Positions 15,526 to 31,698 of a stretch of DNA of 64,000 bases are shown here, one piece after another. Where the stretch lies: NCBI GenBank assembly GCA_903846945.1, contig CAINCE010000073.1, forward strand, positions 13,626-77,625, in the 5' to 3' direction. Made by a program: the position numbers and the translations under genes. Each line of letters begins with the position of its first letter. Position 1 is the stretch's first letter. This DNA comes from an uncultured bacterium (lineage in GTDB: Bacteria > Patescibacteriota > Minisyncoccia > Phycocordibacterales > PALSA-1337). The notes beneath the pieces are model-generated. The model was not told the DNA's origin and searched no databases. It saw only the letters and a program-made list of their open reading frames with translations.

Positions 15526-15578
15526 ACACGGTTCGTAGTGTAGTGTGTGAAAATCGAGTTCGAGAGTTGAAAATTCAT

Positions 15579-15796: not shown

Positions 15797-15814
15797 GCGG
15801 GCGATTCTCCCTAC
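15797..15814 (+). repeat. 18-nt exact copy of the tRNA-Gly 3' end (gattctccctacccgcac)
   Basis: Direct repeat of 15632..15649; a second 13-nt repeat aatgattcgtgag occurs at 15650..15662 and 15869..15881. Confidence 0.7.
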
Positions 15815-16100: not shown

Positions 16101-16478
16101 ATGAGTACAAGATCAAAAGGAAATATCGGGGAAAATGTCGCTTGCATATTCCTTGAGAAAAGGGGATTCAAGATCGCTGTGAGGAATTATATGAAGAAAT
16201 GGGGTGAAATAGATATTATTGCTATAAAAGACAAAGTAGTCCATTTCTTTGAAGTAAAGAGTGTGACTTTTAACCCTGTGCATGACTCTGTATCTCATAA
16301 AGCTGAGGATAATGTTCACGGATTCAAAGTTAGACAGATCCGTAGGATGGTCGAGACATTCCTAGAAGAGACGAACAGGGGACTCGATGCGGAGTTTCAT
16401 TTTCATGTATTGTGTGTGTATTTGAACATGGAGACTAGGGGCGCGCGAGTGAAATGGATCAAGGATTTGGTTCTCTGA
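16101..16478 (+). CDS. YraN (UPF0102) family endonuclease
   Basis: 125 aa; GENVACIFLEKRGFKIAVRNY...GEIDIIA...VHFFEVKS matches YraN/UPF0102. Confidence 0.75.
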   Translation: MSTRSKGNIGENVACIFLEKRGFKIAVRNYMKKWGEIDIIAIKDKVVHFFEVKSVTFNPVHDSVSHKAEDNVHGFKVRQIRRMVETFLEETNRGLDAEFHFHVLCVYLNMETRGARVKWIKDLVL

Positions 16479-16570
16479 TTAGATAGCATGTCGGTTTGTC
16501 GGGCTCAATGAAGAATATTCAAACGGAAATAATTTGTAGAATCGCTATAGTGTGCTAACATGACAACATT

Positions 16571-16643
16571 CGGGGCGTGGTGTAACGGCTAACATGCCTC
16601 TTTTGGGAAGAGGTGACTCCGGGTTCGAATCCCGGCGCCCCGA
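16571..16643 (+). tRNA. tRNA-Pro (anticodon TGG)
   Basis: 73-nt cloverleaf with C1:G72 pair typical of bacterial tRNA-Pro; anticodon loop TTTGGGA; T-arm CCGGG-TTCGAAT-CCCGG. Confidence 0.8.
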
Positions 16644-16708
16644 CAAGGTAGATAATGTAAAATTGAACTTCCTCCACACTCTCCTACGCCCCCTCCGTCG
16701 CCGAGGCT

Positions 16709-17230
16709 ATGGAGGGCAAGAAGGCTTCGGAGGGCAAGAAAATCAAAATGGAAAGCTATAAAAAAATAATAAATTTCTTCGATAAGTTTGAGGATAGAGT
16801 TCGCGGACAGTTGAGTCGCTTTCCGATTCTGTACACTTTTATCGGTGGTATTGCCATCGTCTTGTTCTGGAGAGGTGTTTGGCATACGGCGGATATATTA
16901 CAGGCACAAGGAGGTATTTTAGGATGGCTGTTCTACGAACCGATAAACATGTTGATCGTTCTTGTCATATTGCTCGCTACAGGATTGTTCGTTTCATATT
17001 TCATCGGTGATACGATACTCATGAGCGGACTCAAGGGAGAGAAGAAGGCGACAGAGAGGACTGAGAGGGAGATCAAGGAAGAGGAAAAACAGATCCAGGA
17101 GGAAGAGGTGCAGATCAAGCAAGAACAGAAAGAACTGAAAGAAATAAAGGCGTCGATCAGTGACATGAAAGCGGAAGTTGATGAGATCAAGGAGATCGTG
17201 GAGAATGTCGAAAATCAGCATCACAAATAG
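16709..17230 (+). CDS. membrane protein with K/E-rich coiled-coil C-terminus, hypothetical
   Basis: 173 aa; two TM helices then a highly charged EEKQIQEEEVQIKQEQKELKEIK repeat region. Confidence 0.45.
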   Translation: MEGKKASEGKKIKMESYKKIINFFDKFEDRVRGQLSRFPILYTFIGGIAIVLFWRGVWHTADILQAQGGILGWLFYEPINMLIVLVILLATGLFVSYFIGDTILMSGLKGEKKATERTEREIKEEEKQIQEEEVQIKQEQKELKEIKASISDMKAEVDEIKEIVENVENQHHK

Positions 17231-17342
17231 ATTTGGTCCCTTACTAATTCGAGGATATTTTGAAATTACAAAAGACTTCGTGGCCAGTCTTGTTACAACG
17301 CAAAATTATTGCTAGCATTGACTTTGCTCTCAAACAAAACAT

Positions 17343-17413
17343 GCGGGATTAGTTAAATGGTATAATAACAGTTTTCCAAACTGTGGTTGGGAGTTCGATT
17401 CTCCCATCCCGCA
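17343..17413 (+). tRNA. tRNA-Gly (anticodon TCC)
   Basis: 71-nt cloverleaf: acceptor GCGGGAT/ATCCCGC, anticodon stem ACAGT/ACTGT, loop TTTCCAA, T-arm GGGAG-TTCGATT-CTCCC. Confidence 0.8.
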
Positions 17414-17497
17414 CTATCTAAATCGTATTTAAAATTTGAATACAAAAAAGCCGATCCTGATGACCGGTTTGCGTCTCAGCTTTCGTAAGCCCATGAA

Positions 17498-18577: not shown

Positions 18578-19351
18578 CTAATACGTATCTTTTATCGAAT
18601 CAAACATGAAATCAAACATCTTTTCGAACGTTTCGCGTACGGATGCGTTTTCTATGATGGTGATGATAAGTCCACTTTTGAAGTCTGTTATCGACACTTT
18701 GTCTCCGTAAATGATGATTTGTGCTGGGATATAGAAACCATCTGGTATAGTTTTGCGTGTGACGTTGCGGGCCTTGTCTTTCTTTATCAATACGTCCATA
18801 GGAACATCCTCTCTCTTTGGGCCGATGAGTTTTACTTTGATGCCAATTTTCGCTTGTTTTTCGATGTGGGCGCGTAATATCGATGCGGTATCGATATCTT
18901 TGTGATCAAGTAAAGATCTTATCAGTTTTATATCTTTACCTTCGGCTAATATGTCATTATACATTTCCTTTAGTCCATCTGACCCTTCCAGGAATTGAAT
19001 GTTCGGTTTACCAGAAAGCAGGTTAAATTTGGAAGATAGTAAGCCAAATGAATCGTTAAATACAATGTTTGCTTGATCACTTGTTTGCTTTTCTTCTTCT
19101 AGGATGATCTTGATCCTGTTTGGGTGAACAGGGAAGAACATAGATATCTTTCCAACATCATCTCGCTTGGTAATGATACCCTTTTCGACCAGTTGAGCTA
19201 GAACTTTGTAGCAAAGTGCCCGGCCCAGGTTCGTTTTTGTCGAAATAACTCTGGCATTGCATAGTCCATTTTCAAGCAGAAATAAATATATCTTTGACTG
19301 CTCTCTAGTCAGTCCTATGTCGACAAGTGTTTTTTCATCATAGTTTGTCAT
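18578..19351 (-). CDS. TrmB-like HTH transcriptional regulator
   Basis: 257 aa; N-terminal wHTH (LTREQSKIYLFLLENGLCNARVISTKTNLGRALCYKVLAQLVEKGIITK); paralog of 28074..28853 in inverted orientation. Confidence 0.6.
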   Translation of the reverse strand: MTNYDEKTLVDIGLTREQSKIYLFLLENGLCNARVISTKTNLGRALCYKVLAQLVEKGIITKRDDVGKISMFFPVHPNRIKIILEEEKQTSDQANIVFNDSFGLLSSKFNLLSGKPNIQFLEGSDGLKEMYNDILAEGKDIKLIRSLLDHKDIDTASILRAHIEKQAKIGIKVKLIGPKREDVPMDVLIKKDKARNVTRKTIPDGFYIPAQIIIYGDKVSITDFKSGLIITIIENASVRETFEKMFDFMFDSIKDTY

Positions 19352-19442
19352 GAGTGTGTAACAGATTAGCTAATGATAATGCTCATATTTCAGTACTGTA
19401 TCACAATATAAGGAATATTGCACGCATTTAGGTCAATGAGGG

Positions 19443-19471
19443 TTGACAAATTCTGTCATCGTGCTATAAAT
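19443..19471 (+). promoter_or_regulatory. sigma70-like promoter candidate
   Basis: TTGACA (19443..19448), 16-nt spacer, TATAAAT (19465..19471), upstream of 19582..19965. Confidence 0.45.
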
Positions 19472-19581
19472 ATGCACAGAAACGGTGGATATGGGATGAG
19501 TATTTACTCGCCGCTATCGTTTGACAATTTAGGGGCATTATATAGGTGGCCCATCAAACTACCAGTTCGGAAAGAAAAGTT

Positions 19582-19965
19582 ATGAAGAAATTCGTTTTTA
19601 TTATGCAGCATACTCCCACTGCTGAACAGGTTACAAGGGCTAGTGAGTCCGGCCAGGTGGTTGAACTCTCGGACAAGAAGTTGCTGTTGGTGCCAGATGA
19701 CCTGTATCTCGATTACGCGTGGTTCGTAAGTCGGGCTGCAGATATTGTTGCGGCGGTCGGCGGCATCTGCCCCGGGGATACGGTACAGGTCATGGGCCAG
19801 CAGCAGTTGGCGATGGTCGTAAACGCCCATGCGCGGAGTTGTGGTGCGGAGCTGGTGGAGTCGGTGACTCCACGGACTTCGAAGGAGGTCCACCAGCCGG
19901 ACGGCACGGTAAAGAAGGAGACGGTATTCTCCTTTGCTGGATTTCGGAAACTCCACAACTACTAG
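19582..19965 (+). CDS. small hypothetical protein P1, paralog of 26786..27172
   Basis: MKKFVFIMQHTPTAEQ...LLLVPDD...GAELVESVTPRTSKEVHQPDGTVKKE; about 60% identical to the minus-strand paralog at the far end of the island; GC-rich. Confidence 0.5.
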   Translation: MKKFVFIMQHTPTAEQVTRASESGQVVELSDKKLLLVPDDLYLDYAWFVSRAADIVAAVGGICPGDTVQVMGQQQLAMVVNAHARSCGAELVESVTPRTSKEVHQPDGTVKKETVFSFAGFRKLHNY

Positions 19966-20005
19966 TTTGTGGACAGGTTGAAAGACCTGAAAAAACTTTC
20001 CTCCA

Positions 20006-20020
20006 CGCATTGAGTCAATG
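20006..20020 (+). terminator. hairpin GCATTGA-GT-CAATGC immediately upstream of HHR1
   Basis: Perfect 6-7 bp palindrome 3 nt before the ribozyme. Confidence 0.4.
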
Positions 20021-20022
20021 CG

Positions 20023-20075
20023 TTGCTTCTCGGAATGTGTATTCCGACTGATGAGTCTGAAAGGACGAAAAGCAA
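20023..20075 (+). ncRNA. hammerhead ribozyme, type III (HHR1)
   Basis: TTGCTTC / stem I TCGGAAT-GTGT-ATTCCGA / CTGATGAG / stem II GTCT-GAAA-GGAC / GAAA / AAGCAA; stem III 6 bp; predicted cleavage after UUC at 20029. Confidence 0.8.
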
Positions 20076-20153
20076 AATTCAGGACTTTAATATATTGGTT
20101 ACATACAATATTCTTCATAGTAACTTGGCGATATCATTTGTCGACAGCTTACT

Positions 20154-20342
20154 ATGAAGAAAGTCGTAGACTCCATCAGTGCAGCAGCTGCTGAAAAAGC
20201 AGCTGAGGCGACGAAGGAAGTACTCAGTGGGTTCAAGCCTGCTGAGAGGCTTCTCCTAGTCGGTCTCGCACTGATCGGACTCGCCATCATTTCTGCAGAT
20301 GGCGAGAAAGAAAAGCAGAAGGGTTCTAGGAAATCCCACTAA
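20154..20342 (+). CDS. small membrane protein, hypothetical
   Basis: 62 aa; one TM helix (LLLVGLALIGLAIISA); directly downstream of HHR1. Confidence 0.4.
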   Translation: MKKVVDSISAAAAEKAAEATKEVLSGFKPAERLLLVGLALIGLAIISADGEKEKQKGSRKSH

Positions 20343-20346
20343 ACAC

Positions 20347-20368
20347 GCTCGTATTCCTAGATACGAGC
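20347..20368 (+). terminator. hairpin GCTCGTAT-TCCTAG-ATACGAGC immediately upstream of HHR2
   Basis: 8-bp perfect stem starting 5 nt after the stop of 20154..20342. Confidence 0.45.
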
Positions 20369-20370
20369 AA

Positions 20371-20418
20371 CTGTCTCGGAATATCGTTCCGACTGATGAG
20401 TCTGAAAAGACGAAACAG
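20371..20418 (+). ncRNA. hammerhead ribozyme, type III (HHR2)
   Basis: CTGTC / stem I TCGGAA-TATCG-TTCCGA / CTGATGAG / stem II GTCT-GAAA-AGAC / GAAA / ACAG; stem III ACAG:CUGU; cleavage after GUC at 20375. Confidence 0.8.
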
Positions 20419-20478
20419 AGTAGTTCTTCACATATTGTATTCATGTAGCTTGCGTCTATATCCTTGGTCGCAGACTAC

Positions 20479-20850
20479 ATGAATACAAACAACAAAGAGG
20501 TAGCCGCAAACTCTATAAAAGCGGTAGAGGCGTACAGGGCACAGATCGCCAATCTGCAGAGTCAAATCTGCAAATTGGAAGAGGCGGCCGCGGTCGCCAT
20601 GGAGACACTCGTCGGGGCGAAGGTTGCCGACGGCTGGAAGAAGTTTGAATACTATTCCAGCTACTACGGGTCGCATAGTGAGCTCGGTGAGGGTGATGAG
20701 GAGAGGACGCTCCTCTTTCACCCCAGTGTGGACTTGTCCACATGGGACGGTGTGTCGTTCTCGCATGGCCATCGTGGCCAGAGCGAGGAAAACGGGCGGT
20801 TCTGTAAGTGGCTCTCCGGTCTCCCGGAAGGTCACTACATCGAACTGTAG
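20479..20850 (+). CDS. hypothetical protein
   Basis: 124 aa from MNTNNKEV; coiled-coil N-terminus; follows HHR2; GC-rich. Confidence 0.4.
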   Translation: MNTNNKEVAANSIKAVEAYRAQIANLQSQICKLEEAAAVAMETLVGAKVADGWKKFEYYSSYYGSHSELGEGDEERTLLFHPSVDLSTWDGVSFSHGHRGQSEENGRFCKWLSGLPEGHYIEL

Positions 20851-20851
20851 T

Positions 20852-20956
20852 GATTTACCTGCTGTAACAGGTTGATTTAACCGGACGAGTCTTTACAGAG
20901 ATTCCTCCACTTCATTGAGCCGTATGAGTGAAAGATTCTCGTCGGTTCATAGAGTT
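20852..20956 (+). ncRNA. conserved structured RNA element, copy A (unclassified)
   Basis: About 105 nt near-identical to 22629..22733: hairpin ACCTG-CTGTAA-CAGGT; hairpin GACGAGTCTT-TACA-GAGATTC..; palindrome CTCAATTGAG; hairpin ATGAG-TGAAAGATT-CTCGT. Covarying base pairs between the two copies. Confidence 0.55.
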
Positions 20957-20978
20957 CGTTAAATGGGAGAAAAAAATT

Positions 20979-21140
20979 ATGGGTATGAACCTAGGTGGTG
21001 TGAAGGTGAAAGGCGGTTCTGGTGGGAAGCGGGGACACTCCGGGATGTGTCATTGGATGCCGACCGAGCAGGTAAAGGTAGTATCCAAGAAGGCCCGCCG
21101 CCGTGAAGATAAGTGCCTGGTTAAGCCTTCGGCCGAGTGA
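20979..21140 (+). CDS. small basic hypothetical protein
   Basis: 53 aa MGMNLGGVKVKGGSGGKRGHSGMCHW...; GGGAG 12 nt upstream. The track's 20928 GTG start lies inside the conserved RNA element. Confidence 0.3.
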   Translation: MGMNLGGVKVKGGSGGKRGHSGMCHWMPTEQVKVVSKKARRREDKCLVKPSAE

Positions 21141-21315
21141 TCGGCTTAGTAACACCTCTAACCAAGGTTGCCACAAAATTCCTCCTTCGCTCTAATGAGC
21201 TATGGAGGGACAAGCCGGTGGTGTAAATCAAGGTAAAGAGTTTTGTCCCCGTCTTTCTCAGAAAAGACGGAGAGCCTAGAGGAAGCAGAGCCTCACCGAG
21301 ATATATCTCTCGGTT

Positions 21316-21388
21316 CTGTCTCGGAATATCGTTCCGACTGATGAGTCCCTCTACATCCTATTCGGGGTGAGAGTGAAGGACGAAACAG
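21316..21388 (+). ncRNA. hammerhead ribozyme, type III with extended stem II (HHR3)
   Basis: CTGTC / TCGGAATATCGTTCCGA / CTGATGAG / extended stem II GTCC-CTCT-A-CATCC-TATTC-GGGTG-AGAG-TGAA-GGAC / GAAA / ACAG. Upstream hairpin CCGAGAT-ATAT-CTCTCGG at 21295..21312. Confidence 0.75.
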
Positions 21389-21410
21389 AGTTGGTCTTTA
21401 AAATCAAATT

Positions 21411-21674
21411 ATGCCAATGTTAAAAACCAATGTGGTGCCGTACAACAAGACGGCGAGCTGCAACCGGCAGCCAGTAAATGTCAACCATCAGCAGAAAATC
21501 GTGGTAGTCAATACACGGTGCGGTGATGGTCAGGAAGGGAAACACCAGACCCATCTGGACGCCATGGTCAAAGTCGAGGCCGAAAAGGGATTCAAAATCC
21601 TTCAGGCATCGACGGTGATCGTGCCAGTGAGTGCTGGGCTGCTCTTCTCTACGACGGTGGTGTTGGTGTCGTGA
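21411..21674 (+). CDS. hypothetical protein
   Basis: 87 aa; follows HHR3 after a conserved acagagttggtctttaaaat spacer. Confidence 0.35.
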   Translation: MPMLKTNVVPYNKTASCNRQPVNVNHQQKIVVVNTRCGDGQEGKHQTHLDAMVKVEAEKGFKILQASTVIVPVSAGLLFSTTVVLVS

Positions 21675-21765
21675 GCGGTGCAGGGTAGACAAGGCTGATG
21701 GTTCCTAGTAATCATTCTCGACCACGGAGTGCAGTGGTAGACGTGATCGCCCTACGGTAGTGGGT

Positions 21766-21796
21766 GCGTAATTCCGAGGGGAAGCTCCTCGGCGCC
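21766..21796 (+). repeat. motif GCGTAATTCCGAGGGGAAGCTCCTCGGCGC (hairpin)
   Basis: Near-identical copy on the minus strand at about 25266..25296; both sit between a gene end and a hairpin+HHR. Confidence 0.5.
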
Positions 21797-21814
21797 TGGT
21801 GAGCGGAAACTACT

Positions 21815-21834
21815 GGAAAGATGCAAATCTTTCC
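21815..21834 (+). terminator. hairpin GGAAAGAT-GCAA-ATCTTTCC immediately upstream of HHR4
   Basis: 8-bp perfect stem 2 nt before the ribozyme. Confidence 0.45.
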
Positions 21835-21836
21835 TT

Positions 21837-21909
21837 CTGTCGCGAAGTTGAACTTCGCCTGATGAGTCCCTCTACATCCTTTTCGGGATGAGAGTGAAGG
21901 ACGAAACAG
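21837..21909 (+). ncRNA. hammerhead ribozyme, type III with extended stem II (HHR4)
   Basis: CTGTC / stem I GCGAAGT-TGA-ACTTCGC / CTGATGAG / same extended stem II as HHR3 / GAAA / ACAG; followed by the same acagagttggtctttaaaat spacer. Confidence 0.8.
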
Positions 21910-21926
21910 AGTTGGTCTTTAAAATT

Positions 21927-22622
21927 ATGAAGCACGTAAATATGACCCCGCGGCAGTGGGGATTCAGTATTGAACCGTTTCCGGCCTTCCGGTCGGAGAT
22001 AGTCTATGGTCGGCACAAGCACGACCAACAGTTTCTCCCTGTTAAGGGAATATCTCCCGTTACCACATTTACTGTGGAAGGCGGAGGAGTCGTTCTCTAC
22101 AAGGGAACGGACTGTGTTCTGGCGCAAAAAACAGTCGCAGACTTTGATGATGTTCAGCGGAAAAAAGTCCCGTTCACATTGTCGCATGCGATATTCACGG
22201 TATCACCGCAGACTCTGCCGGAGAATCGCTTCCAGGTCATCAAGACCAAGGAGAAGGGAACCATCATGGTTGTACCTGGCGAGGACCTGACCAGACGATG
22301 CCTACTGTTCGCAGAGTGCAAGGGTGGGTTTCGTGGCGGCGTTGCACTCATCGGTGGGAGCAATTCAGCTGACGTCATCAAGAAGTGTCATGCCGGAGAT
22401 GCTTGCGATAGCTTGATGGCTGTTATCGCAATACTAGAGGTGGATCAGTCTATCGCATTTCATTCCTGGGGCAGGAGGAAGGACGAAGTCTACCGCCATG
22501 CTTGGGATGGTGAGACCATCAAGGTCGAGCATTATTCCATAGACGAATGGAACGTCAGGAGTGAGCTCATCACTGCCGATGTGGCACAGGCTCATGAAGC
22601 TCTTCCGGGCGACGGAAGTTGA
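21927..22622 (+). CDS. hypothetical protein
   Basis: 231 aa from MKHVNMTPRQWG; follows HHR4; no motif recognised. Confidence 0.45.
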   Translation: MKHVNMTPRQWGFSIEPFPAFRSEIVYGRHKHDQQFLPVKGISPVTTFTVEGGGVVLYKGTDCVLAQKTVADFDDVQRKKVPFTLSHAIFTVSPQTLPENRFQVIKTKEKGTIMVVPGEDLTRRCLLFAECKGGFRGGVALIGGSNSADVIKKCHAGDACDSLMAVIAILEVDQSIAFHSWGRRKDEVYRHAWDGETIKVEHYSIDEWNVRSELITADVAQAHEALPGDGS

Positions 22623-22628
22623 TAGTGG

Positions 22629-22733
22629 TATTTACCTGCTGTAACAGGTTGATTTTAACCAGACGAGTTTTTACAGAAACTCGTCTACTCAATTGAGCTG
22701 TACGAGTGAAAGATTCTCGTCGGTTCATAGAGT
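22629..22733 (+). ncRNA. conserved structured RNA element, copy B (unclassified)
   Basis: See copy A; hairpin here is GACGAGTTTT-TACA-GAAACTCGTC (the C:G pair in A is U:A in B) and ACGAG-TGAAAGATT-CTCGT (U:G in A becomes C:G in B). Confidence 0.55.
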
Positions 22734-22762
22734 GTTCGGTGAAATTTTGCAAAAAAGAAAAT

Positions 22763-23026
22763 ATGTTGAAAATTCCAGTGAATGGTGCGGAGATTCAAGA
22801 GGTCGATGGGGTCGAGTACCTTGTTGCGCGACTGGACAAGACACTGGTGTGTTCAGACTACGTAGACGAGTTGAGGAAGGGTCGTCCCGTAGTTGTGCCT
22901 AGCTCCAAGCGCGGGCATTTGACGACTCAGCTCAAGGCAGGGAACATCTCCACCCGGCAGAAGTCTATGGTTGCCGGACAGTGGATAGCCTTCATACCAT
23001 GTGAAGCGAGGGAGTTCAAGTCCTGA
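22763..23026 (+). CDS. hypothetical protein
   Basis: 88 aa MLKIPVNGAEIQEVDGVEYLVARLDK...; the track's 22706 GTG start lies inside RNA element B. Confidence 0.35.
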   Translation: MLKIPVNGAEIQEVDGVEYLVARLDKTLVCSDYVDELRKGRPVVVPSSKRGHLTTQLKAGNISTRQKSMVAGQWIAFIPCEAREFKS

Positions 23027-23375
23027 TCGTAGGAAAGACTTCCAAAGGATCACTCTAACCTTCTCAAAAGAGTGTATTGTCACCGTAAGAACAATGGTGA
23101 GAGATTTCAAAACACCGTACGAAAGTGCGGTTTTTTCATAGTGAATAAGAGCGTTTTTTACATTGTCCCAAAAACGGAACCACCCCCTTTCGGGGGTTCT
23201 GTAAGCTTTATTGCCGTGAATATTACAGTGAATGCGTGCAAGTTGTGCTAGAGGTATCTTATGTGCTAACATATGCATACACAGAGACATTATCCGAACT
23301 GTCACCGGACGGTGGCTTGGTTGGGACAACCAACATAGGTAGTGTATCGGGAAATCGCCCTTCGGGGCTTTTTCT

Positions 23376-24032
23376 TTATTTAAATCGCCATTCATCCTCG
23401 ATATGTTTCCGAATGATCTTTTTGTAAATAATTCCATCTTGTTTGTTACCCTCATAACTCCTCCGTATGCTCCCAGCGATCATATCAGCCAATTGGATGA
23501 GCACGTTATCTTTTGAGTCTGAAAACTTCAAATTTGAAATCACCTTAATTCCATTTGAGTTAAGAGATTTTCGTAGGTATGATGAAAAATTCCTCCGGAA
23601 AGCCCTGTCTCCACTACCATCAAGCTTGATCTTTGCTTCTAGAATACTCATATCACTGTGTTTCAGTAACATCTTTATGGAATAACTATAAAATGAATTC
23701 TTGTCATTTTTTAACTCATCACTATGTAGGATGGTCTTGTCTATAACCAGTGTTCTAACTTTAAATGCAAACACGTTGATAGTATTCATGAAACCTAGAC
23801 GGACTTTTTTGTTTGACTTGTTAAACTTGAATTCCATCGTATCTGGAAATCCGATACTTCTCCTAAACTCTTTTATGGCCACGGCAACCTTTTCGGCTTC
23901 TAACGGATCGTCGAATATGACAGCGGCAATAACAAAAATCTTGCTCGATCCTCTTTCGAATTTGAATCCAGCATCACCGGAATCATCGATGAATACTAAA
24001 GTTTGCGAATTTTGTGTGTGTTTGCTAAGCAT
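23376..24032 (-). CDS. DUF3800 family protein
   Basis: 218 aa; LVFIDDSGDAGF at the N-terminus and LIQLADMIAGSI near the C-terminus are DUF3800 hallmarks; AT-rich gene inside a GC-rich island. Confidence 0.65.
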   Translation of the reverse strand: MLSKHTQNSQTLVFIDDSGDAGFKFERGSSKIFVIAAVIFDDPLEAEKVAVAIKEFRRSIGFPDTMEFKFNKSNKKVRLGFMNTINVFAFKVRTLVIDKTILHSDELKNDKNSFYSYSIKMLLKHSDMSILEAKIKLDGSGDRAFRRNFSSYLRKSLNSNGIKVISNLKFSDSKDNVLIQLADMIAGSIRRSYEGNKQDGIIYKKIIRKHIEDEWRFK

Positions 24033-24400
24033 ATCGTGGAACTATTATACTCTCGAAATATTGATTGGCTAGTGAGGACAAAAAATCCCCACGAGGCTAC
24101 GGATATAGACATAGGACTTAGTCGAGAAGCGGTGTTTAGAGGAGAGAGATTTTGCAATCACTCACACCGCCTCGCTACATAATCCGATATCATACCCATA
24201 GCCCCGCGGGGACTCGTGTTTAGACACTAATAATAACTCAATGAGCCTGTAAACCTCTAAATTTATAGGCTCAATAAAGTGGAGATTTTCTTGAAATCTC
24301 CAGAAAAGCACCGAGAAACCAATCTCGGAAACCATTATCGCTCCACTCTGCGATCGAGGAAAGTTTTAGAGGGTGACTTTCAACCTATTGACGTCAGCTA

Positions 24401-24940
24401 TTATACCGACGTCTTCTGGAGCCGCGCCATCGCGTGCTCCCACGCGACCGCAGCAGCGGTCGCATCGTACATGGGGTGGTGCGCCACCCCCGCGAACGGC
24501 ACCGCGATGCCGTTCTTTTTGTTATATGCGTCCACTGAGGACGCGTCCTCGCTCAGTGCGAGGAGCGCCGTGCCTAGGTCATGTAGGCACGGATAAGGGC
24601 CCTCGAAGGCCCGTTCGTCGAGATTTCTCTCGACGCAGCGGCGGAACAGCCCCGATTCCACGGGGCTACCGCAATGGGCGATCACAGTCGCCCCTACCTT
24701 TTGGGCCTGCCAAAAGGCCCAGAAGGCCTCTTCCAACTCCTCCGAAGAGGAGTGGGAGACCGGCATCCCCGCCAGAGCGGGGAGAACGTTTGCACGCACC
24801 CAGCCGTCCGACACGGCTGAGTCGGCGATCCGGCCCTCGAAGCGGGCCGTTTCCACACCGTCCACCCGGACGGTCGCGGCGATTGCGAATGACGGGCCAT
24901 ACAGCCCGTCAACTTCTGCGTCACAACTAAAGATTTTCAT
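24401..24940 (-). CDS. DEDDh-type 3'-5' exonuclease (DnaQ-like fold), putative
   Basis: 179 aa, GC-rich; IFSCDAEVDGL (Exo I D-x-E), AHCGSPVESGLF (Exo II-like), HHPMYDATAAA (Exo III H-x4-D); GAGG 13 nt upstream of ATG. Confidence 0.5.
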   Translation of the reverse strand: MKIFSCDAEVDGLYGPSFAIAATVRVDGVETARFEGRIADSAVSDGWVRANVLPALAGMPVSHSSSEELEEAFWAFWQAQKVGATVIAHCGSPVESGLFRRCVERNLDERAFEGPYPCLHDLGTALLALSEDASSVDAYNKKNGIAVPFAGVAHHPMYDATAAAVAWEHAMARLQKTSV

Positions 24941-24954
24941 AATATTCCTACCTC

Positions 24955-25135
24955 TCTATTCGTCCAACAATCTCTTTCTAATCACACATCGTGCGACTAC
25001 ATCCCTCCTCCAGGAATGCTCAACTGAGAAAAAAGACCACCGAAGTTTCGATTGGTAGAATGTATTCATTATGTTCGAGCTTATCTTCTGTAATGATAAT
25101 GAATACGTTCCACCAATCGATAGTAGTAGAAACAT
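24955..25135 (-). repeat. 181-bp conserved 5' leader, copy 1, upstream of the DEDDh exonuclease gene
   Basis: About 95% identical to 27186..27366; contains a roughly 24-bp imperfect hairpin (cgattggtggaacgtattcattat ... ataatgaatacattctaccaatcg). Confidence 0.7.
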
Positions 25136-25146
25136 ATGATATTTTT

Positions 25147-25197
25147 CTGTTTTCGTCCTTTCGGACTCATCAGTCGGGATACACATCCCGAGAACAG
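25147..25197 (-). ncRNA. hammerhead ribozyme, type III (HHR5, minus strand)
   Basis: Minus-strand read: CTGTTC / TCGGGA-TGTGTA-TCCCGA / CTGATGAG / GTCC-GAAA-GGAC / GAAA / AACAG; stem III 5 bp; cleavage after UUC. Preceded on the minus strand by hairpin GGAGAAGCTTTTGGTTAAAAGCTTCTCC (25199..25226). Confidence 0.75.
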
Positions 25198-25335
25198 TGG
25201 AGAAGCTTTTAACCAAAAGCTTCTCCATTTAACCTATGAAGTATTTTCCGCGTGCCTCATCATCACGCGCCGGGGAGCTTCCCCTCGGAATTACGCGGTA
25301 TGTTTATAGTCTTACCGATAAGACTTGAAGTGCTA

Positions 25336-25671
25336 CTACGGCAGCAATTGGTTGCCGTGTTGCTCACGGAGCTTGGCCATTCGTTTGGCCACCCTCCTCT
25401 GCATCGCCGCATACCTGTGCGGCGGTTCGGTGAATCCGGGAACTTCCCGGTTATGTGCGAGGTCGTCGCACATCTGCTCCACCATGATGGCAAGGATGAA
25501 CTCCTTGTCATCATGGGTGAATTCCTGGGACTCGCCCAGGTCCTGTGTCCAAACCAAGTATGGTCGCACTAGCGACTCATACTGGCTGCCGATACTGATT
25601 CCGGCGGCAGTACCCAAATTTTCTGATGTATTCATGCAACCTATTTCCGATCCTTCAGAAACAAATTGCAT
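25336..25671 (-). CDS. hypothetical acidic protein
   Basis: GC-rich ORF; start uncertain (the track's N-terminus MEKLLVKSFST is a translated palindromic hairpin); DKEFILAIMVEQMCDDLAHNREVPGF. Confidence 0.3.
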   Translation of the reverse strand: MQFVSEGSEIGCMNTSENLGTAAGISIGSQYESLVRPYLVWTQDLGESQEFTHDDKEFILAIMVEQMCDDLAHNREVPGFTEPPHRYAAMQRRVAKRMAKLREQHGNQLLP

Positions 25672-25812
25672 GAATACATCTAAGACTCTAAGAGCCAACC
25701 TCCTGGGAGACCGGCTCAATAAAGTGGAGAAGCTTTTAACCAAAAGCTTCTCCATTTAACCTTGCGACGATTTATCCAGTAACGGAAAGGAAGTCGCTGT
25801 TCCTTTGTTGTA

Positions 25813-26424
25813 TTAGGTCATTGCCCGTATAACGGACAGTGAGACGTCTCTGGGGGCGTCACTCTCTCCGACGGGATGCAACCCACCCCTCCAACTCTCG
25901 AGGGCTTCGGTGTACATCCCATGTTTGGTGGGATGATACACATGCGCGGGCTCGCCTCGCAAGAAAGCCCCGTTGGTCCACCAGAATAAAATTAGGGAAA
26001 TGCACTCTTTGTCTTTGTGTGCTTTCCCGTATTCTGATTTGTACCCAGAATCGATAAGGAGCTGCCAGTCAATGTCTGGTAGCTCCTCGACCAACCATTC
26101 CGGGTGGCCGTGATCTTCCCATTGGATTAACTCGTCCAATGGTAGGAAGATGTCTTTCTGAAACACTAGTTTCAGAAAGTAATTCTGTAAATTTTCCGAG
26201 CACAACCGCGTGCTCGCTTCTAGGAGTTGCCGTTGCAACTCCTTGTTCAGCCAGTAGGAGATCTTTCCGTCTCCTGACTGGATGTACCCCTTACAGGTCA
26301 GGCGGTTCGCGCCTGACCTGTAGGTCGTTTCACGAGTCCCCATGCCATCGGGGGACTCGTATTTAACTACTGTTTGCGTGCCGAACGGCTCAACGTCGGC
26401 ACGCAACATTCTCATTTGCGACAT
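25813..26424 (-). CDS. hypothetical protein
   Basis: 203 aa; AAGGAGG 9 nt upstream of ATG on the minus strand; no motif recognised. Confidence 0.5.
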   Translation of the reverse strand: MSQMRMLRADVEPFGTQTVVKYESPDGMGTRETTYRSGANRLTCKGYIQSGDGKISYWLNKELQRQLLEASTRLCSENLQNYFLKLVFQKDIFLPLDELIQWEDHGHPEWLVEELPDIDWQLLIDSGYKSEYGKAHKDKECISLILFWWTNGAFLRGEPAHVYHPTKHGMYTEALESWRGGLHPVGESDAPRDVSLSVIRAMT

Positions 26425-26785
26425 TTTAATGCCCTCCTTCTAGGGCATGTTTCCACAACTTGTTTCGCATGTGGATTGCGGTTCGAGAAGATCATTCTCT
26501 ATCAACCGTCAACATGGAAGTTGTTGGCTGAATAAAGCGGAGAAATTTACGTATTCTCCAATTGACTTTCGTCACGGCAAGCAACCACGCCTGCAACCCG
26601 ATCTAGGATTGACCTCCATCCTTGATCATTATAGGAGTATTCAGATTTGTCTTGCGACAGGTCTCATACACAAAACCTTTTTACTTTTTTTGACACGACC
26701 AGTTTGTCCCTCCGAAGCCTGTTGGGGCGAAGGAGGAATTTTGTCGCAACTATAGGCTATCCCTATAGGTTTTTACGTCCAGAGC

Positions 26786-27172
26786 TTAGTAGCTGTGGAC
26801 GAGACGGAAGCCCTTGAACGTGAAGATGAACTCCTTCTTCACGGTCCCGTCCGGCTGCGGGATGTCCTTAGACACCCGCGGTGTGACGCTCTCAACGAGC
26901 TCAGCGCCAGCCTGGCGTGCCAGCGCCTGCACAGCGCTAGCCAACTGAGCCTGACCCATAATGTGGGCCACGTCGCCGGCGGAAAATCCGCCGACCGCCA
27001 AGGCGATTTCCTCGGCGCGCTGGACAAACCAGTCACGACCTAGATTGGCGTCGTCCGGAACGATCAAGAGCTTCTTGTCGTTCACCTGGACCACTTCACG
27101 TCCGCCTTCGGACGCCGCGGTGATCTGTTCCGCCGTGGGGACGTGGGACATTATAAATGCAAAAGTTTTCAT
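26786..27172 (-). CDS. small hypothetical protein P2, paralog of 19582..19965
   Basis: 128 aa MKTFAFIMSHVPTAEQ...LLIVPDD...GAELVESVTPRVSKDIPQPDGTVKKE. Confidence 0.5.
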   Translation of the reverse strand: MKTFAFIMSHVPTAEQITAASEGGREVVQVNDKKLLIVPDDANLGRDWFVQRAEEIALAVGGFSAGDVAHIMGQAQLASAVQALARQAGAELVESVTPRVSKDIPQPDGTVKKEFIFTFKGFRLVHSY

Positions 27173-27185
27173 ATTTTTTCTACCA

Positions 27186-27366
27186 TCTATTCGTCCAATA
27201 ATCTCTTTCTAATCACACATTGTGCGACTACATCCCTCCTCCAGGAATGCTCAACTGAGAAAAGAGACTATCGAAGTTTCGATTGGTAGAATGTATTCAT
27301 TATGTTCGAGCTTATCTTCTGTAATGATAATGAATACGTTCCACCAATCGAGAGTAGTAGAAACAT
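27186..27366 (-). repeat. 181-bp conserved 5' leader, copy 2, upstream of P2
   Basis: See 24955..25135. Confidence 0.7.
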
Positions 27367-28073
27367 GCACACGCTTAGGAATCGTTTTATACGATCCCTC
27401 TTATCATGCCGATCTAGAAGTTTGTTACGCTATCGGTCAGCATGACGAAGAGGAATAACATCTAGTGGTATTGCAAAAAAGCAATATTATTCCACCAGTT
27501 TCCTATCATTCGCTATTTCATTTTCAAATTACTTCCTTGATCTTACCGTCACTCCCGATCTCTCTAAAAGATCGGCTTCTGGTTACAAGGACATTTCTGG
27601 GAGCAAATGTGGTTAGCATTCACTCACAGCAGATGTCATTGCGACACTGTGTAGATATCGGACTATAGTCATCACTACCCGTCGGGAGTGACCTTTCTCA
27701 TAGATCTGGTTCGTTTGCAGGGAACCGTCACTATGTAAGCGATATCTGGCAAACAAGATAACAAATGGCTGTTGTCCTTCTCACTCTCTCCTCTTTACCA
27801 TGCTTAGCGGGGTCAAACCCGAGGCCATGGTGCCTGCCCAACATAGGGACTAGAGGTGAAAAGCAATCATTCACTATCTTCATTACTGTAAGGAACTATC
27901 GTTTCCGAACTTCATCTCATCTGGCATAATCATAACATTTATTAACTAGAATGTCAATACACAATGACACGGAACTGTGAGATGTCAGAATAGCCCGTGA
28001 CAAAGCCAGAATAATGGCTTATCCACACATTGTACTTGTCACAAATCCGTGACGATGATATGCTATATTCATC

Positions 28074-28853
28074 ATGTATGAACAAACACTTACAAATGCG
28101 GGGCTTTCAAAAGAGCAGGCATCCGTTTATCAGCTCCTCATGCAGGGAGGATTGACTCCTGCAGGCGTTATTAGCAAAAGGGCGGCCCTAAAGCGTGGTT
28201 TGACGTATAAAGTCCTAGAACAGCTCATAAATATGGGTTTAGTTCAGAAAAGGGACGATCTAGGCAAAATAACGCTATTTCAAGCATCTCATCCTGGCGT
28301 ATTGAGGAAACTTACTGAAACCAAGGCCGAGGAGGTAAAGAACGCCCAAGTATCATTGGAATCAGTGATGGGTAAGATGGTATCAGACTATAATTTGGTG
28401 ACGGGGAAGCCAAATGTGCAGTTTTTCGAAGGTTTGGAGGGGGTAAGGAGGGTATTGGATGATTCTCTGAGTGCTACTGGTGTGATCTATTCATATGCAG
28501 ATATTGAATCAATCGAGAAATATATACATGGGGTTAACGAAAAATACGTTGAAAAGCGTGATAAGTTCAATATCAAAAAGAAAGCAATAATACTAGATAC
28601 GCCATTTGCACGTGATTTTTTGAAAGATTACCATCGAGAAACTACTGATATCAAGCTTATCAAACATGATTCACCTCCATTTCATACAGTTATGCAGGTT
28701 TACGACAACAAGGTTAGTTATATTACGCTGTCTGAAAAGGAAATGATCGGTGTTATCATAGAAGACCCGCACATCTTTGAGATGCATAAATATCTGTTCG
28801 AATATTCTTGGGATAAGGCGGAATCATTGCCGAAACTAGATACTCCTAAATAA
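28074..28853 (+). CDS. TrmB-like HTH transcriptional regulator
   Basis: 259 aa; LSKEQASVYQLLMQGGLTPAGVISKRAALKRGLTYKVLEQLINMGLVQK; paralog of 18578..19351. Confidence 0.6.
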   Translation: MYEQTLTNAGLSKEQASVYQLLMQGGLTPAGVISKRAALKRGLTYKVLEQLINMGLVQKRDDLGKITLFQASHPGVLRKLTETKAEEVKNAQVSLESVMGKMVSDYNLVTGKPNVQFFEGLEGVRRVLDDSLSATGVIYSYADIESIEKYIHGVNEKYVEKRDKFNIKKKAIILDTPFARDFLKDYHRETTDIKLIKHDSPPFHTVMQVYDNKVSYITLSEKEMIGVIIEDPHIFEMHKYLFEYSWDKAESLPKLDTPK

Positions 28854-31698
28854 TGATAGCGTGTCGGGTCTCTATCATTTGAGGGAGTTGAAAATCATTC
28901 CTGTATCGTTCCAGTTTCTCGCCCAATTTCTCTACAACCAATATAACCAGCTCTTCACTACCTGTTGTTTTCTCTCTGAACATTCTGGTTACCGCATAAC
29001 CTTCTCCAAAGGAAGCGAGGTTTAATGTATAAGACTTGTAATCTGACGCCGTGGTTGCGTATACCATCGCATCTTCTGGGTTGTCAGAAAGGCCCAGTGT
29101 CTCCCAGGAATTCATCACCATATGATCTAGTATGTATGATTCGTCCAGAGATTTTGTTACTAACTCATTGTTTATGGAGTCATTCCTCACAATATCCCAA
29201 CATGCTATCTCATCTAGGGGGTATTCGTTGTATGCGATAAATCCCTTCTCAATGTATTTTGCAGCTATCTTGGTGTTTCTGTCACATTCAGCTTTGACGA
29301 TATGCATGACAGCGTAATCATCTAGAGTTTCCTCTAGCATTTGTTCGCCAACTTTGCGACCATTAAAATCTGGATCGATATTAAATTTACCAAAATGAAC
29401 ACTTCCATCATCTTCGAATTCAAAGACACAATATCCTATCGGTTGCCCATCGAATTCGGCGACATGAAATATGGTCCTAGTATTCTTTCTCGAAACTTCT
29501 AGTCCGGCTAGCAACCTTTTCAGTAGCTTAGGTTTGTCTTGGTAGTTTTTCTTGTAAAGATTTCGGATTGCTTTCACAAATTCCGCGCTGTTGGTTTCGT
29601 TGTCTCCACCCTGGTATTGGATATTCTTGATAAATGGCATCTCGTTCATATTGGCGATATCGAATGAGCCGCGGCTAGCTTTAAGTATGGTTTGAACAAC
29701 TATTGCCTCAGGTTTGATATTTTCGATATATTCACGGATTGCTTCTGGAGTAGATACATTTTCAGATGCTATTTTACTAATGATAGTGTCGACTTGAGCT
29801 AGGATGAGTTTCTTTGCTTGAGGAATGACGGTTTTTTTGATAACAACATCATTTGGCTCCAAGATTTCTTCTTCCTCATATGTTTTAGATCTTTCATAGA
29901 TATCATCAAACTCATCATCTAGGCGTGATATATATGATGATATACTGGCCAATAACTCCAATATCTGATGAGAATCAATACCGTCAGGCAAGTTAGATAT
30001 TACATCGAGTGTCTTTGTGGCAACTACAGGATCAGTCTCATAGTAACGAAGAAATACTTTTAAGCCAGATTCACCATGAGTCTTTGCTAGATTTAGGAGT
30101 TTATCTTCGGATACCTGCTCCAATTCATTGAGTATGATGAGTAAGGCGCCTTGTTCCTTGAATGAGAAGTTGTTTAGTCGTATGTCACCTGAGAATATAT
30201 CGCTATCGGAAATATTGAAGTAGTGCTTTTTGAATTCTTCTAAATATCGTTCTCGTTGCCTCTTTTCATCTTCTGTCTCACCTGTATGTGGTCTGAAAAG
30301 AGTATTATATGTAAAATCGAGCACATCCGCCTTGATGTTTTTCTCTGTTTCAGAAAGATTTCCGACATCAAAATATTTCAATAATTCTAGATCTTGATTG
30401 AACACACCGATCTCTCCACTGGTAGATAATCTTTGAACGAAGTAGTCTGGGTTATTGAGTGCTCCTAGGTCGTACATCTTGTTCAGATACTCGACACCTT
30501 CAGTCGAAACTCCTATTCTCTTGAATTCGACTCTATATAATATAGCTGCTATAGCTGTTTTATCATTGTTATCGTTCACGTGCTCCATCAATTTCACTGA
30601 AGCATATTGTCCGTCAATAGCGCTTAGCGCGTCAGCTACTGAGTTTGCAAAGATAGGATTTAGATTCTTTGACCAGAAGTCAACTACGAGGTCGACATCG
30701 TCGTGGTCACCGCTCGTGCCGAGGTATCTATATTGGTCCAATACCGCCAGCATTATTCTATGGAAAGGGTATTCTTCTATATGCTCGAAACTGATATAAT
30801 CCTGCGTATCATTCATTTCATATTCAAAGACTGATTGAGCTGAATTGTATGCAGCACTTGGTTGATATGTTTTAAAGAGCATCGAGTGTGCTGCATTGAA
30901 GTAATCTGACTTTGATAATCTCCTTTTAGAGTTATCTTCTGATACGCTTTCTCTGGTGAAGCTTGAATTATTGGCTTCGAGAAAGACCAGTGACTCTTGC
31001 AAGTATGCGAGACATAGACTGAGTAACTTTTTCCGAGATTGAGTATCTAGTGTTCTGTATTCATCATTATCGAACAAGTCGCGTGTTTGCAGAATTTCGC
31101 TTAAGCCTACAGGATTCGAACTTGCCTTATCAATGGCATTCGATATATTATTTGACGCCATACCAAATGAAGCGATTTCATCAAGAAGGTTTGTGCCATT
31201 GGATAGTAAATGTTTTGGGGCTTCGATTCTTCTCTTGTTTATCTTTTGCCACGGATTGAGGGTAGTTTGATTTGATGAGTCTTTTGTGGATAAAAAAACT
31301 CTATGTGCGGCCATACTCCAAACTGAAAATTCCTCGGTAGTTTGCGGACCTATATTGCTGGAAATCAATACCCGAAAGGCTTCTAAGTCGTCAGGATATG
31401 TGTCAAAGTACAGATCCGCATCACTAGGACTTACAGAAATGTTGCGAGATGACAGACCAAAAAAAGCCATTCTTTTTCCCGGTGACATAGAGCCCAGGTT
31501 GTCGAGGTTATCGGGAGAGAAAAATGTCAGTGGATTGTTCCCATATTCTTTTTTCCATTCTGCATAAGTGGCAACGTTGTTATTCTCTCGTTCGAACTCA
31601 TCTATAGGATCGCATAATGACTCTTGGGAAAACTGAGTGGCATTGTTATTTGTAGTATTCTGTTCTTCGGTCACTGGTATTGATTCAAATTTCATCAT
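28846..31698 (-). CDS. large hypothetical protein with GNAT-like C-terminal region
   Basis: About 950 aa; C-terminal GYCVFEFEDDGSVHFGKFNIDPDFNGRKVGEQMLEETLDDYAVMHIV resembles an acetyltransferase fold (low confidence); start taken at the MMKFES tandem Met. Confidence 0.45.
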   Translation of the reverse strand: MMKFESIPVTEEQNTTNNNATQFSQESLCDPIDEFERENNNVATYAEWKKEYGNNPLTFFSPDNLDNLGSMSPGKRMAFFGLSSRNISVSPSDADLYFDTYPDDLEAFRVLISSNIGPQTTEEFSVWSMAAHRVFLSTKDSSNQTTLNPWQKINKRRIEAPKHLLSNGTNLLDEIASFGMASNNISNAIDKASSNPVGLSEILQTRDLFDNDEYRTLDTQSRKKLLSLCLAYLQESLVFLEANNSSFTRESVSEDNSKRRLSKSDYFNAAHSMLFKTYQPSAAYNSAQSVFEYEMNDTQDYISFEHIEEYPFHRIMLAVLDQYRYLGTSGDHDDVDLVVDFWSKNLNPIFANSVADALSAIDGQYASVKLMEHVNDNNDKTAIAAILYRVEFKRIGVSTEGVEYLNKMYDLGALNNPDYFVQRLSTSGEIGVFNQDLELLKYFDVGNLSETEKNIKADVLDFTYNTLFRPHTGETEDEKRQRERYLEEFKKHYFNISDSDIFSGDIRLNNFSFKEQGALLIILNELEQVSEDKLLNLAKTHGESGLKVFLRYYETDPVVATKTLDVISNLPDGIDSHQILELLASISSYISRLDDEFDDIYERSKTYEEEEILEPNDVVIKKTVIPQAKKLILAQVDTIISKIASENVSTPEAIREYIENIKPEAIVVQTILKASRGSFDIANMNEMPFIKNIQYQGGDNETNSAEFVKAIRNLYKKNYQDKPKLLKRLLAGLEVSRKNTRTIFHVAEFDGQPIGYCVFEFEDDGSVHFGKFNIDPDFNGRKVGEQMLEETLDDYAVMHIVKAECDRNTKIAAKYIEKGFIAYNEYPLDEIACWDIVRNDSINNELVTKSLDESYILDHMVMNSWETLGLSDNPEDAMVYATTASDYKSYTLNLASFGEGYAVTRMFREKTTGSEELVILVVEKLGEKLERYRNDFQLPQMIETRHAIII

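Follow-up and report, generated by a model that had tools for sequence, protein, structure and literature searches.

Clusters of hammerhead ribozymes have been described in prophages by Perreault et al. 2011 (PMC3088659), where several hammerheads on the same strand each lie just upstream of a small, often unannotated gene. We found a comparable arrangement in a stretch of 64,000 nucleotides from an uncultured bacterium of the Patescibacteriota (contig CAINCE010000073.1; the whole stretch is referred to as the window). It belongs to an island between two TrmB-like regulator genes in inverted orientation, TrmB_L and TrmB_R, just inside which lie two genes for small paralogous proteins, P1 and P2 (P for either). 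As in the prophage clusters, the identities of the genes vary between loci, and the processing of a long transcript into single-gene mRNAs that was proposed for the prophages is proposed here as well. The island differs from them in its apparent setting, a conserved chromosomal slot of the candidate phyla radiation (CPR) and not a recognisable prophage, and in its ribozymes, which are of type III. In addition, its first gene is Csx20-like and stands under a TrmB-like regulator, and its hammerheads alternate with other leaders and trailers.

The other parts of the island also have described counterparts. Csx20 proteins (MJ1673 family; Hoikkala et al. 2024, bioRxiv 10.1101/2024.09.24.614671) are ~125 aa long, match P over the full length in a hidden Markov model comparison, and share with it a CARF-like fold and His, Arg, Asp and Lys positions. 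P, in contrast, forms a separate, tight subfamily that scores below the family cutoff and has Gln and Pro at two positions where Glu is common in the wider family; no type III CRISPR system lies nearby in the window, and P always stands beside RNA elements rather than cas genes. In the acr-aca pair csx20-aca14 of Pasteurella (bioRxiv 10.64898/2026.07.27.740549), a small Csx20-type gene adjoins a gene for a DNA-binding repressor and the promoter contains inverted repeats, as here. The regulator in our locus is instead a 255-aa protein of the TrmB/TrmBL2 type with a ligand-domain-like PLD fold; it is divergent from P, not co-transcribed with it, and is chromosomal and syntenic across the CPR. 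It shares the winged helix, long dimerisation helix and PLD-like domain of the archaeal regulators TrmB and TrmBL2 (PDB 3qph, 5bpd), whereas the CPR proteins are bacterial, lack the second sugar-binding subdomain, and have variable operons instead of sugar genes as apparent targets. The PLD-like domain of these TrmB/TrmBL2-like regulators is catalytically dead. Finally, among the DUF3800-associated RNA motifs (Weinberg et al. 2017, PMC5737381), the DUF3800-IX RNA lies beside an opposite-strand DUF3800 gene and is itself followed by a terminator-like hairpin. The same order occurs here, except that the pair sits where two ribozyme-punctuated operons converge, a link that is absent from the main text of that paper.

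We consider it probable that the region is a variable slot between a conserved RNase Y-GNAT-TrmB_R block and an HU gene, and that this slot holds two anciently diverged regulator-operon units placed tail to tail. Each unit would most plausibly consist of a TrmB/TrmBL2-like regulator divergent from an operon that starts with P, and P itself is likely to be a CPR-specific member of the Csx20/MJ1673 CARF-fold family. The original prediction, made from the sequence, had described P1 and P2 as inverted paralogs of ~60% identity located roughly 230 and 900 bp inside TrmB-like genes that were themselves inverted paralogs at 30-35%. These figures held up. Full-length alignment of P1 with P2 gave 63% identity (E 9e-59), and TrmB_L and TrmB_R were 33% identical over 251 aa (E 5e-40); both regulators pass the Pfam TrmB model (39.9 and 33.6 bits, gathering cutoff 25.6), and the gaps between TrmB and P measure 230 nt on the left (19352-19581) and 901 nt on the right (27173-28073). 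Third codon positions of P1 and P2 agree at 35%, and synonymous sites between the two units are saturated. The G+C content of the enclosed 8.5 kb is 48-54%, compared with ~42% outside. The sign of the GC skew flips near 23 kb, and the halves of the island were therefore taken to be convergent transcription units; their convergence is also marked by terminator-like sites at 23114 (+) and 24302 (-).

The relationship of P to Csx20 was supported by several searches. The NCBIfam Csx20 model (NF040559; cutoff 70) matched both P1 (E 1.3e-6, 28.8 bits) and P2 (23.2 bits) over the full length, and the PADLOC Csx20 model, which spans both proteins end to end, matched P1 with E 3e-7. The close homologues of P are a small family of ~128-aa proteins from metagenome-assembled genomes of Patescibacteria (Taylorbacteria, "Saccharibacteria"), all of which carry the precomputed database label PF27247 MJ1673. 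A profile search of 1.84 billion representatives returned only 21 clusters with E<1e-10, marking the P subfamily as tight, and ~125 remoter proteins, mostly of similar size, matched at E <= 0.001. When P was aligned with 15 of the remoter relatives, H10, R99, D108, K113 and R123 were invariant or nearly so, and the NCBIfam Csx20 model matched all 20 aligned proteins at E <= 0.001. The fold of P is CARF-like and Rossmann-derived, with the Crn1 protein Sso2081 as the best structural match. MJ_1673, which is 130 aa long, occurs in association with type III-A CRISPR systems (PMC3973734). The 64-kb window contained no CRISPR array, and neither cas10 nor any other cas gene was present among the open reading frames (ORFs) screened in it. 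In the literature we found no published link of ring nucleases to Patescibacteria.

The hammerheads were first seen as "CTGATGAG...CGAAA" cores among the repeats of the region. Rfam identified five type III hammerheads in the island, with E-values of 1e-6 to 3.5e-5. Our own covariance model, R1, which was built from a ten-copy hammerhead seed alignment, recovered the same five copies in the window and none in its other 55 kb; with the 32 more that it found in P-relative loci, the total came to 37 in the 446 kb made up by these loci and the window, and almost every copy was on the same strand as P. The core CUGAUGA ... GAAA is carried by 5/5 window copies, and in the 10-sequence seed C17 was invariant and U16.1 nearly invariant. 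The predicted structure has three stems, with loops closing stems I and II. Compensatory changes affected 12/17 pairs in the seed, where 89% of cells were paired, as against 31-47% with the partner slid, and 15/17 pairs among 34 distinct copies in a model-fitted alignment. A start codon follows each window hammerhead at a distance of 15-205 nt. The window hammerheads are predicted to cleave themselves. The hammerhead clusters that flank single genes in prophages cleave in vitro (PMC3088659). We found no published link of hammerheads to Saccharibacteria in the literature.

The regulators were examined together with the corresponding loci of other genomes, which are numbered L001 onward. The fold of TrmB_R is of the TrmB/TrmBL2 type, with a winged helix, a long helix and a PLD-like domain. 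A tree of the TrmB proteins separated into two clean clades, R and L, with the window copies on opposite sides and TrmB_L in the company of L002, L003, L006 and L029. Identity to orthologues in other genomes was 50-54% for the R type and 36-48% for the L type, compared with only 33% between the window partners. The R type has more than 430 homologues. In 13 other loci, P is likewise preceded by a divergent TrmB gene (L001-4, L006, L018, L021-23, L025, L027, L029, L036). The R-type loci have TrmB-P gaps of 850-1600 nt, with a structured leader, D1, before P in some of them, and the L-type loci have gaps of 190-360 nt, and P is usually followed there by a hammerhead at a distance of 50-60 nt. 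The trees of P and TrmB were loosely congruent (Mantel r 0.48, p 0.001). The hexamers TGTCAA/TGACAA occurred in all 13 TrmB-proximal intergenic segments, where ~1.5 were expected, and palindromes like TTGAC-N5-GTCAA overlap the -35 in L004, L018, L021 and L023.

Across the CPR loci examined, R-type TrmB was always convergent with a large GNAT protein and divergent from a variable operon. The convergent TrmB-GNAT pairing was seen in 8/8 R-type loci, and the called gene ends overlap in 6 of them; in the window, the 3' end of TrmB_R overlaps the convergent 965-aa GNAT gene (28846-31743) by 8 nt (28846-28853). The slot in the window is flanked by housekeeping genes. L048 has a short version of the same arrangement, RNase Y-GNAT-TrmB-two genes-HU, in which TrmB_R is retained. 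In other loci the operon contains genes of different ring-nuclease-type families: a Csx3 first gene in L042 (Pfam E 7e-20), followed by one for a Csx3-AAA-like protein; a Csx15-like first gene in L045 (PADLOC E 2e-6); and, further downstream, a B116/Csx16-like gene in L047 (PADLOC E 4e-11). Members of the Csx3, Csx16 and DUF1874 families either are ring nucleases or have been predicted to be (PMC8284326). Other genes were also observed near R-type TrmB. Two loci have genes of the 23S_rRNA_IVP family, which has been linked to diversity-generating retroelements (L042 11934-12293, with a weak bAvd hit; L043 7574-7954). A bpMoxR/AAA_5 ATPase is encoded in the divergent operons of four loci (L043 4608-5666, L046 2101-3159, L047 3516-4589, L042 1-881), directly followed in 3/4 by a gene for a 435-457-aa protein.

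Comparison with the sister strain L022, which is colinear with the window at ~93% nucleotide identity, revealed turnover of single cassettes. L022 lacks window positions 24286-25195, a cassette of hammerhead, D1 and g179, and the junction falls inside a repeated hairpin. At the place of g106 it has non-matching sequence behind the same D3 leader, and it carries 2.5 kb of extra DNA; both copies of the D9+D3 element are kept. Sliding nucleotide identity was only 67-77% over a stretch that approximately comprises the P2 ORF with its immediate 5' end, and 91-99% on either side of this stretch. At the protein level, P was 75% identical to its counterpart in L022 (TrmB_R 98.8%, GNAT protein 97.6%, DUF3800 99.5%), and the orphan g139 reached 83% between flanking genes at 98-99%. 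Strict co-evolution of TrmB and P was rejected, as the congruence of their trees is loose and the sister-strain P is so much more divergent than the TrmB_R beside it. In the small sample available (L012, a second assembly contig and L022), gene order and orientation were unchanged.

From this anatomy and from knowledge of the families, we infer repression at the palindromes, self-cleavage of the transcript, and an action of P on cyclic oligonucleotides. The regulator would control both the P promoter and its own by binding to TGTCA/TGACA palindromes over their -35 elements, and a signal would release it from both. The operon would then be transcribed as one RNA, which the type III hammerheads would cut just upstream of individual small genes. 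As the cut mRNAs would start with a 5'-OH and a folded ribozyme, their expression would be independent of upstream content. Synthetic insulators of the RiboJ type also rely on a hammerhead at the 5' end of a cistron, which removes the RNA upstream and gives the transcript a uniform start. RiboJ was engineered, whereas the ribozymes here are natural and repeated, and they coincide with cassette exchange. In other cassettes, the place of the hammerhead would be taken by a terminator-like hairpin together with one of the conserved structured leaders, D1 or D3. The ligand that P would bind, and probably cleave, would be cyclic tetra-adenylate or a cyclic oligonucleotide related to it. The small orphans that follow P would be fast-turnover cargo, and the repeated RNA elements would supply homology for recombination, by which cassettes and P alleles might be gained, lost and swapped between strains.

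Several observations weigh against this explanation. P scores 23-29 bits, far under the curated Csx20 cutoff of 70, and two Glu that are common in the wider family are replaced in it (MGE to MGQ, TER to TPR). The screened ORFs of the window included no Cas10, CD-NTase or recognisable CARF/SAVED effector. The linkage of the parts is not strict: L026, L031, L037 and L040 have no TrmB gene at less than 8 kb from P, and in L005, L028 and L033 P is internal to an array, with a hammerhead just upstream of it. The palindromes include the -35 consensus itself, which inflates the enrichment of the hexamers. The window hammerheads score 37.0-42.0 bits, under the Rfam gathering score of 48.5. Four R-type loci without P are also without hammerheads, so that the parts are separable; the idea of hammerheads as a general trait of TrmB loci was rejected on the same grounds.

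The first of these points are shared by an alternative in which P is a ligand sensor, a sponge or a partner of TrmB and not a nuclease, its link to cyclic oligoadenylate being one of ancestry only. The Glu replacements mean that P could bind without cleaving, and the score under the cutoff points the same way. No cyclic oligoadenylate synthase was found nearby among the screened ORFs of the window, and Csx15, a relative, showed little or no ring nuclease activity and has been suggested to act as a sponge. However, the polar residues (His, Arg, Asp/Glu) predicted to be important in Csx16/Csx20 (PMC8284326) are kept in P, and the presence of three other ring-nuclease-type families in the equivalent CPR operon argues for a shared biochemical role. 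We regard a non-nuclease role as possible but unlikely.

It is rather unlikely that the island is the remnant of a prophage or mobile element, in which P would have the anti-CRISPR role of ring nucleases such as AcrIII-1 or phage csx20, with TrmB as its repressor in the manner of an Aca protein. Such an origin would fit the csx20 homologues described in phages, which adjoin a repressor gene and have palindromes in the promoter (bioRxiv 10.64898/2026.07.27.740549), the hammerhead clusters typical of prophages (PMC3088659), the raised G+C, the rapid evolution or exchange of P, and the P-like folds seen in a few viral proteins (BFVD, E 3.5e-8). However, P had no relatives in 2.9 million viral contigs (IMG/VR) or 50,697 phage genomes (INPHARED). 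Nine island ORFs and the small ORF s62 had no meaningful match in PHROGs, where only a marginal hit of s62 to a family of unknown function was returned (E 0.008), and no integrase, capsid or terminase gene was found in the island. The regulator and its GNAT neighbour are, moreover, conserved chromosomal genes across the CPR, and the slot lies between housekeeping genes. The nearest integrase-family gene is XerC/D-like (9799-10743). Four tRNA genes on the plus strand (Arg-TCG, Gly-GCC, Pro-TGG, Gly-TCC; 14220-17414) lie 1-4 kb to the left of the HU/TrmB_L end, and the repeat listing showed no direct repeats of tRNA gene ends flanking the island.

The original prediction had seen in the TrmB/P pairs ancient inverted termini that recall the ends of invertible or transposable segments, with the enclosed genes as cargo. 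The pairs do lie inverted at both ends of a block of higher G+C, and the content between them varies among strains. This part of the interpretation was nevertheless not supported, and we now regard it as very improbable. A dot plot of the ends had been suggested; when we compared the left arm with the reverse complement of the right arm by blastn (word size 7), only four places matched: a hammerhead (45 nt, 93%), RNA motifs (81 nt, 79%, and 37 nt, 92%) and 79 nt inside P (73%). All of these are internal, and no terminal inverted repeats were found at the island ends. Searches of the island ORFs with Pfam, NCBIfam, PADLOC and PHROG returned no recombinase, invertase or transposase. The low third-codon identity, the placement of the TrmB genes in different clades with separate orthologues, the fixed position of TrmB_R beside the GNAT gene across the CPR, and the constant order and orientation of genes also argue against termini, as does the finding that strains differ by single cassettes and not by the whole block. 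In our explanation, the arrangement is inverted because two units share one slot. The second part of the interpretation, a duplicated regulator/effector pair flanking cargo, was supported in substance: far from being commonly unlinked, TrmB and P form the divergent pair in the 13 loci listed above. The prediction had missed the hammerheads, the turnover of cassettes and the relationship of P to Csx20. A recent local inverted duplication without wider significance, as the same gene order at the start of both arms and several shared RNA motifs might suggest, is hardly credible given that synonymous sites are saturated, that each copy is nearer to orthologues elsewhere than to its partner, and that gap lengths differ by type (R 850-1600 nt, L 190-360 nt).

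The features of the island and its regulators are listed in Table 1.

Table 1. Positions of genes, RNA elements and candidate regulatory sites in the window
Feature	Position	Strand	Description
TrmB_L	18578-19351	-	L-type TrmB-like regulator, 257 aa; Pfam TrmB PF01978 E 3.8e-10
Candidate P1 promoter	19443-19470	+	TTGACA-16-TATAAA, read from sequence
Palindrome TGACA-N5-TGTCA	19444-19458		Over -35 of candidate P1 promoter
P1	19582-19965	+	127 aa, first gene of plus arm
Hammerhead 1 (type III)	20022-20076	+	Predicted cleavage after C20029; Rfam RF00008 40.2 bits, E 4e-6; R1 75.1 bits
s62	20154-20342	+	62-aa ORF with hydrophobic segment; called gene in another assembly of the locus; no family match
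Hammerhead 2	20368-20421	+	Predicted cleavage after C20375; Rfam 41.2 bits; R1 65.9 bits
Hairpin enclosing start codon	20435-20488	+	Inverted repeat I18
g128	ATG 20479, to 20850	+	123 aa, orphan, no family match
D9 terminator-like hairpin and D3 80-nt leader, copy 1	20853-20955	+	Direct repeats D3, D9; upstream of g70
g70	ATG 20979-21140	+	53 aa
I1 RNA motif	21167-21244	+	Inverted repeat 78%; blastn 79% over 81 nt; resembles part of P2 trailer, sense
Hammerhead 3, extended stem II	21313-21391	+	Predicted cleavage after C21320; Rfam 42.0 bits, E 1.4e-6; R1 60.9 bits
g87	21411-21674	+	After hammerhead 3
I3 hairpin motif	21766-21802	+	Upstream of hammerhead 4; 92% match to 25260-25296, sense in both arms
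Hammerhead 4, extended stem II	21834-21912	+	Predicted cleavage after C21841; Rfam 37.0 bits; R1 55.3 bits
g244	21927-22622	+	231 aa from ATG 21927, orphan cargo, no family match
D9+D3 leader, copy 2	22630-22733	+	Repeats
g106	ATG 22763, to 23026	+	87 aa
Intrinsic-terminator-like hairpin and T run	23114-23131	+	Terminator scan; likely end of plus arm
DUF3800-IX RNA motif	23284-23352	+	Rfam RF02968 43.1 bits, gathering score 36.8
DUF3800 protein	23376-24032	-	218 aa; Pfam PF12686 E 2.5e-18; PADLOC PDC-M04A E 1e-14
Terminator-like hairpin, then CTTTATTGAGCC	24280-24302	-	Terminator scan, repeats D6/D7; end of minus arm
g179	24401-24940	-	Orphan cargo
D1 structured leader, g179 copy	24955-25135	-	97% identical to 27186-27366
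Hammerhead 5	25145-25199	-	Predicted cleavage after C25192; Rfam 37.6 bits; R1 77.2 bits
g139	25336-25635	-	Orphan, probably 99 aa from ATG 25635 inside hairpin (I11)
g203	25813-26424	-	Orphan cargo, no family match
P trailer	26545-26785	-	Multi-hairpin RNA downstream of P2, ~200 nt
P2	26786-27172	-	128 aa, first gene of minus arm
D1 P leader	27186-27366	-	181 nt, directly before P2 ribosome-binding site
Candidate P2 promoter	27957-27929	-	TTGACA-17-TATGAT; promoter scan, 11/12 positions, top match of the region
Palindromes at P2 promoter	27969-27952; 28053-28038	-	TGTCA-N8-TGACA; GTCAC-N6-GTGAC
TrmB_R	28074-28853	+	R-type TrmB/TrmBL2-like regulator

Two of the RNA elements may represent new RNA families: the conserved P leader of ~170 nt, in which a hairpin is combined with a junction of three hairpins, and the P trailer of ~200 nt. 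D1 folds into a long hairpin and three hairpins closed by a stem, with compensatory changes in 16/50 pairs (RNAalifold, 13 copies). It is kept before P in many loci and stands before an unrelated 227-aa ORF in L017. A tiny ORF in the D1 hairpin, MNTFYQSKLR, was rejected as a gene because it was not conserved across the aligned copies, and D1 was therefore treated as an RNA structure. The P trailer, with 16/39 pairs compensatory, is conserved at 72-98% in L001, L004, L015-18, L019-23, L024, L025 and L035. Neither element matched Rfam, apart from noise-level microRNA hits for D1. A permissive Rfam scan of 19000-28500 for other ribozymes in the repeats returned only the hammerheads, DUF3800-IX and microRNA noise, with no twister, twister-sister, pistol, hatchet or HDV-like element. 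D3 was also considered as a degenerate hammerhead and rejected by eye, as CGUAUGAG is incompatible with the CUGAUGA core.

Further observations concern the leaders. The D3 copies (20876-20955 and 22654-22733, +) are 80 nt long and 88% identical, and they precede the unrelated ORFs g70 and g106. In copy 2, GACGAG can pair with either of two CTCGTC segments, which suggests potential alternative structures. Four hairpins are built on GTATTCAT...ATGAATAC (20435-20488, +; 25625-25680, 25048-25120 and 27279-27351, -). Two of them enclose the likely starts of g128 and g139, both of which begin Met-Asn-Thr, and the other two lie in D1 leaders; these hairpins may sequester start codons. In the P2 leader (27371-27928, -), ~550 nt between the promoter and D1 contain no ORF of at least 60 aa on that strand. 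This segment is 91-98% conserved only in the close relatives L019 and L022, and indels are concentrated at 27836-27950.

Between cassettes, terminator-like hairpins are found repeatedly. The element at the end of the minus arm has other copies at ~25713-25762 (full), 25196-25235 (hairpin only) and 26526-26543 (tail motif only). The cargo genes g128, g244, g179, g139, g203, g106, g87 and g70 matched nothing in Pfam, NCBIfam, PADLOC or PDB sequence searches, and profile searches with g179 were likewise negative. Homologues of g244 lie between hammerheads in L020, as two tandem copies, and homologues of g179 occur in P-bearing arrays (L005 2209-2721, L017 2808-3326, L023 5939-6463, and also L024). 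The g179 family conserves a D-x-E motif close to the N terminus and an H-x4-D motif close to the C terminus, a likeness to DEDDh 3'-5' exonucleases seen by eye only. Where the arms meet, the DUF3800-IX RNA and the DUF3800 gene are 24 nt apart on opposite strands; the gene has a lower G+C content and its own promoter-like site (24071-24044, promoter scan).

Elsewhere in the window, we observed a diversity-generating retroelement (36874-39459) with a reverse transcriptase gene at 38386-39459. Its template repeat lies at 37867-37975 and its variable repeat at 37506-37614, at the 3' end of a 250-aa ORF, and every within-repeat mismatch falls at an adenine of the template copy. Proteins with a Bro-N domain, which is often phage-derived, are encoded at 7595-8425 (-) and 49916-50788 (+), in surroundings that are otherwise housekeeping.

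A broader reading of these results is tentative. The known ring nucleases are either accessories of type III CRISPR systems or viral anti-CRISPRs. The CPR slot, guarded by a TrmB-like regulator, might hold interchangeable Csx20-, Csx3-, Csx15- and Csx16-like genes together with fast-exchanged orphans, made portable by hammerheads and two undescribed structured RNAs that would act as natural insulators of cassettes, and would represent a CRISPR-free way of handling cyclic oligonucleotides. Such a system could control a distant signalling system, or it could serve these episymbionts as an arsenal against the cyclic-oligoadenylate immunity of their hosts or phages. If this is true, the occurrence of four ring-nuclease families beside one CPR regulator, with no cas genes nearby, would be a new setting for cyclic-oligoadenylate biology, in organisms that have small genomes and depend on hosts. 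The locus also offers a natural test case for the function of bacterial hammerheads, here proposed to insulate and modularise genes, with each ribozyme at the 5' edge of a cassette and cassettes that come and go between strains.

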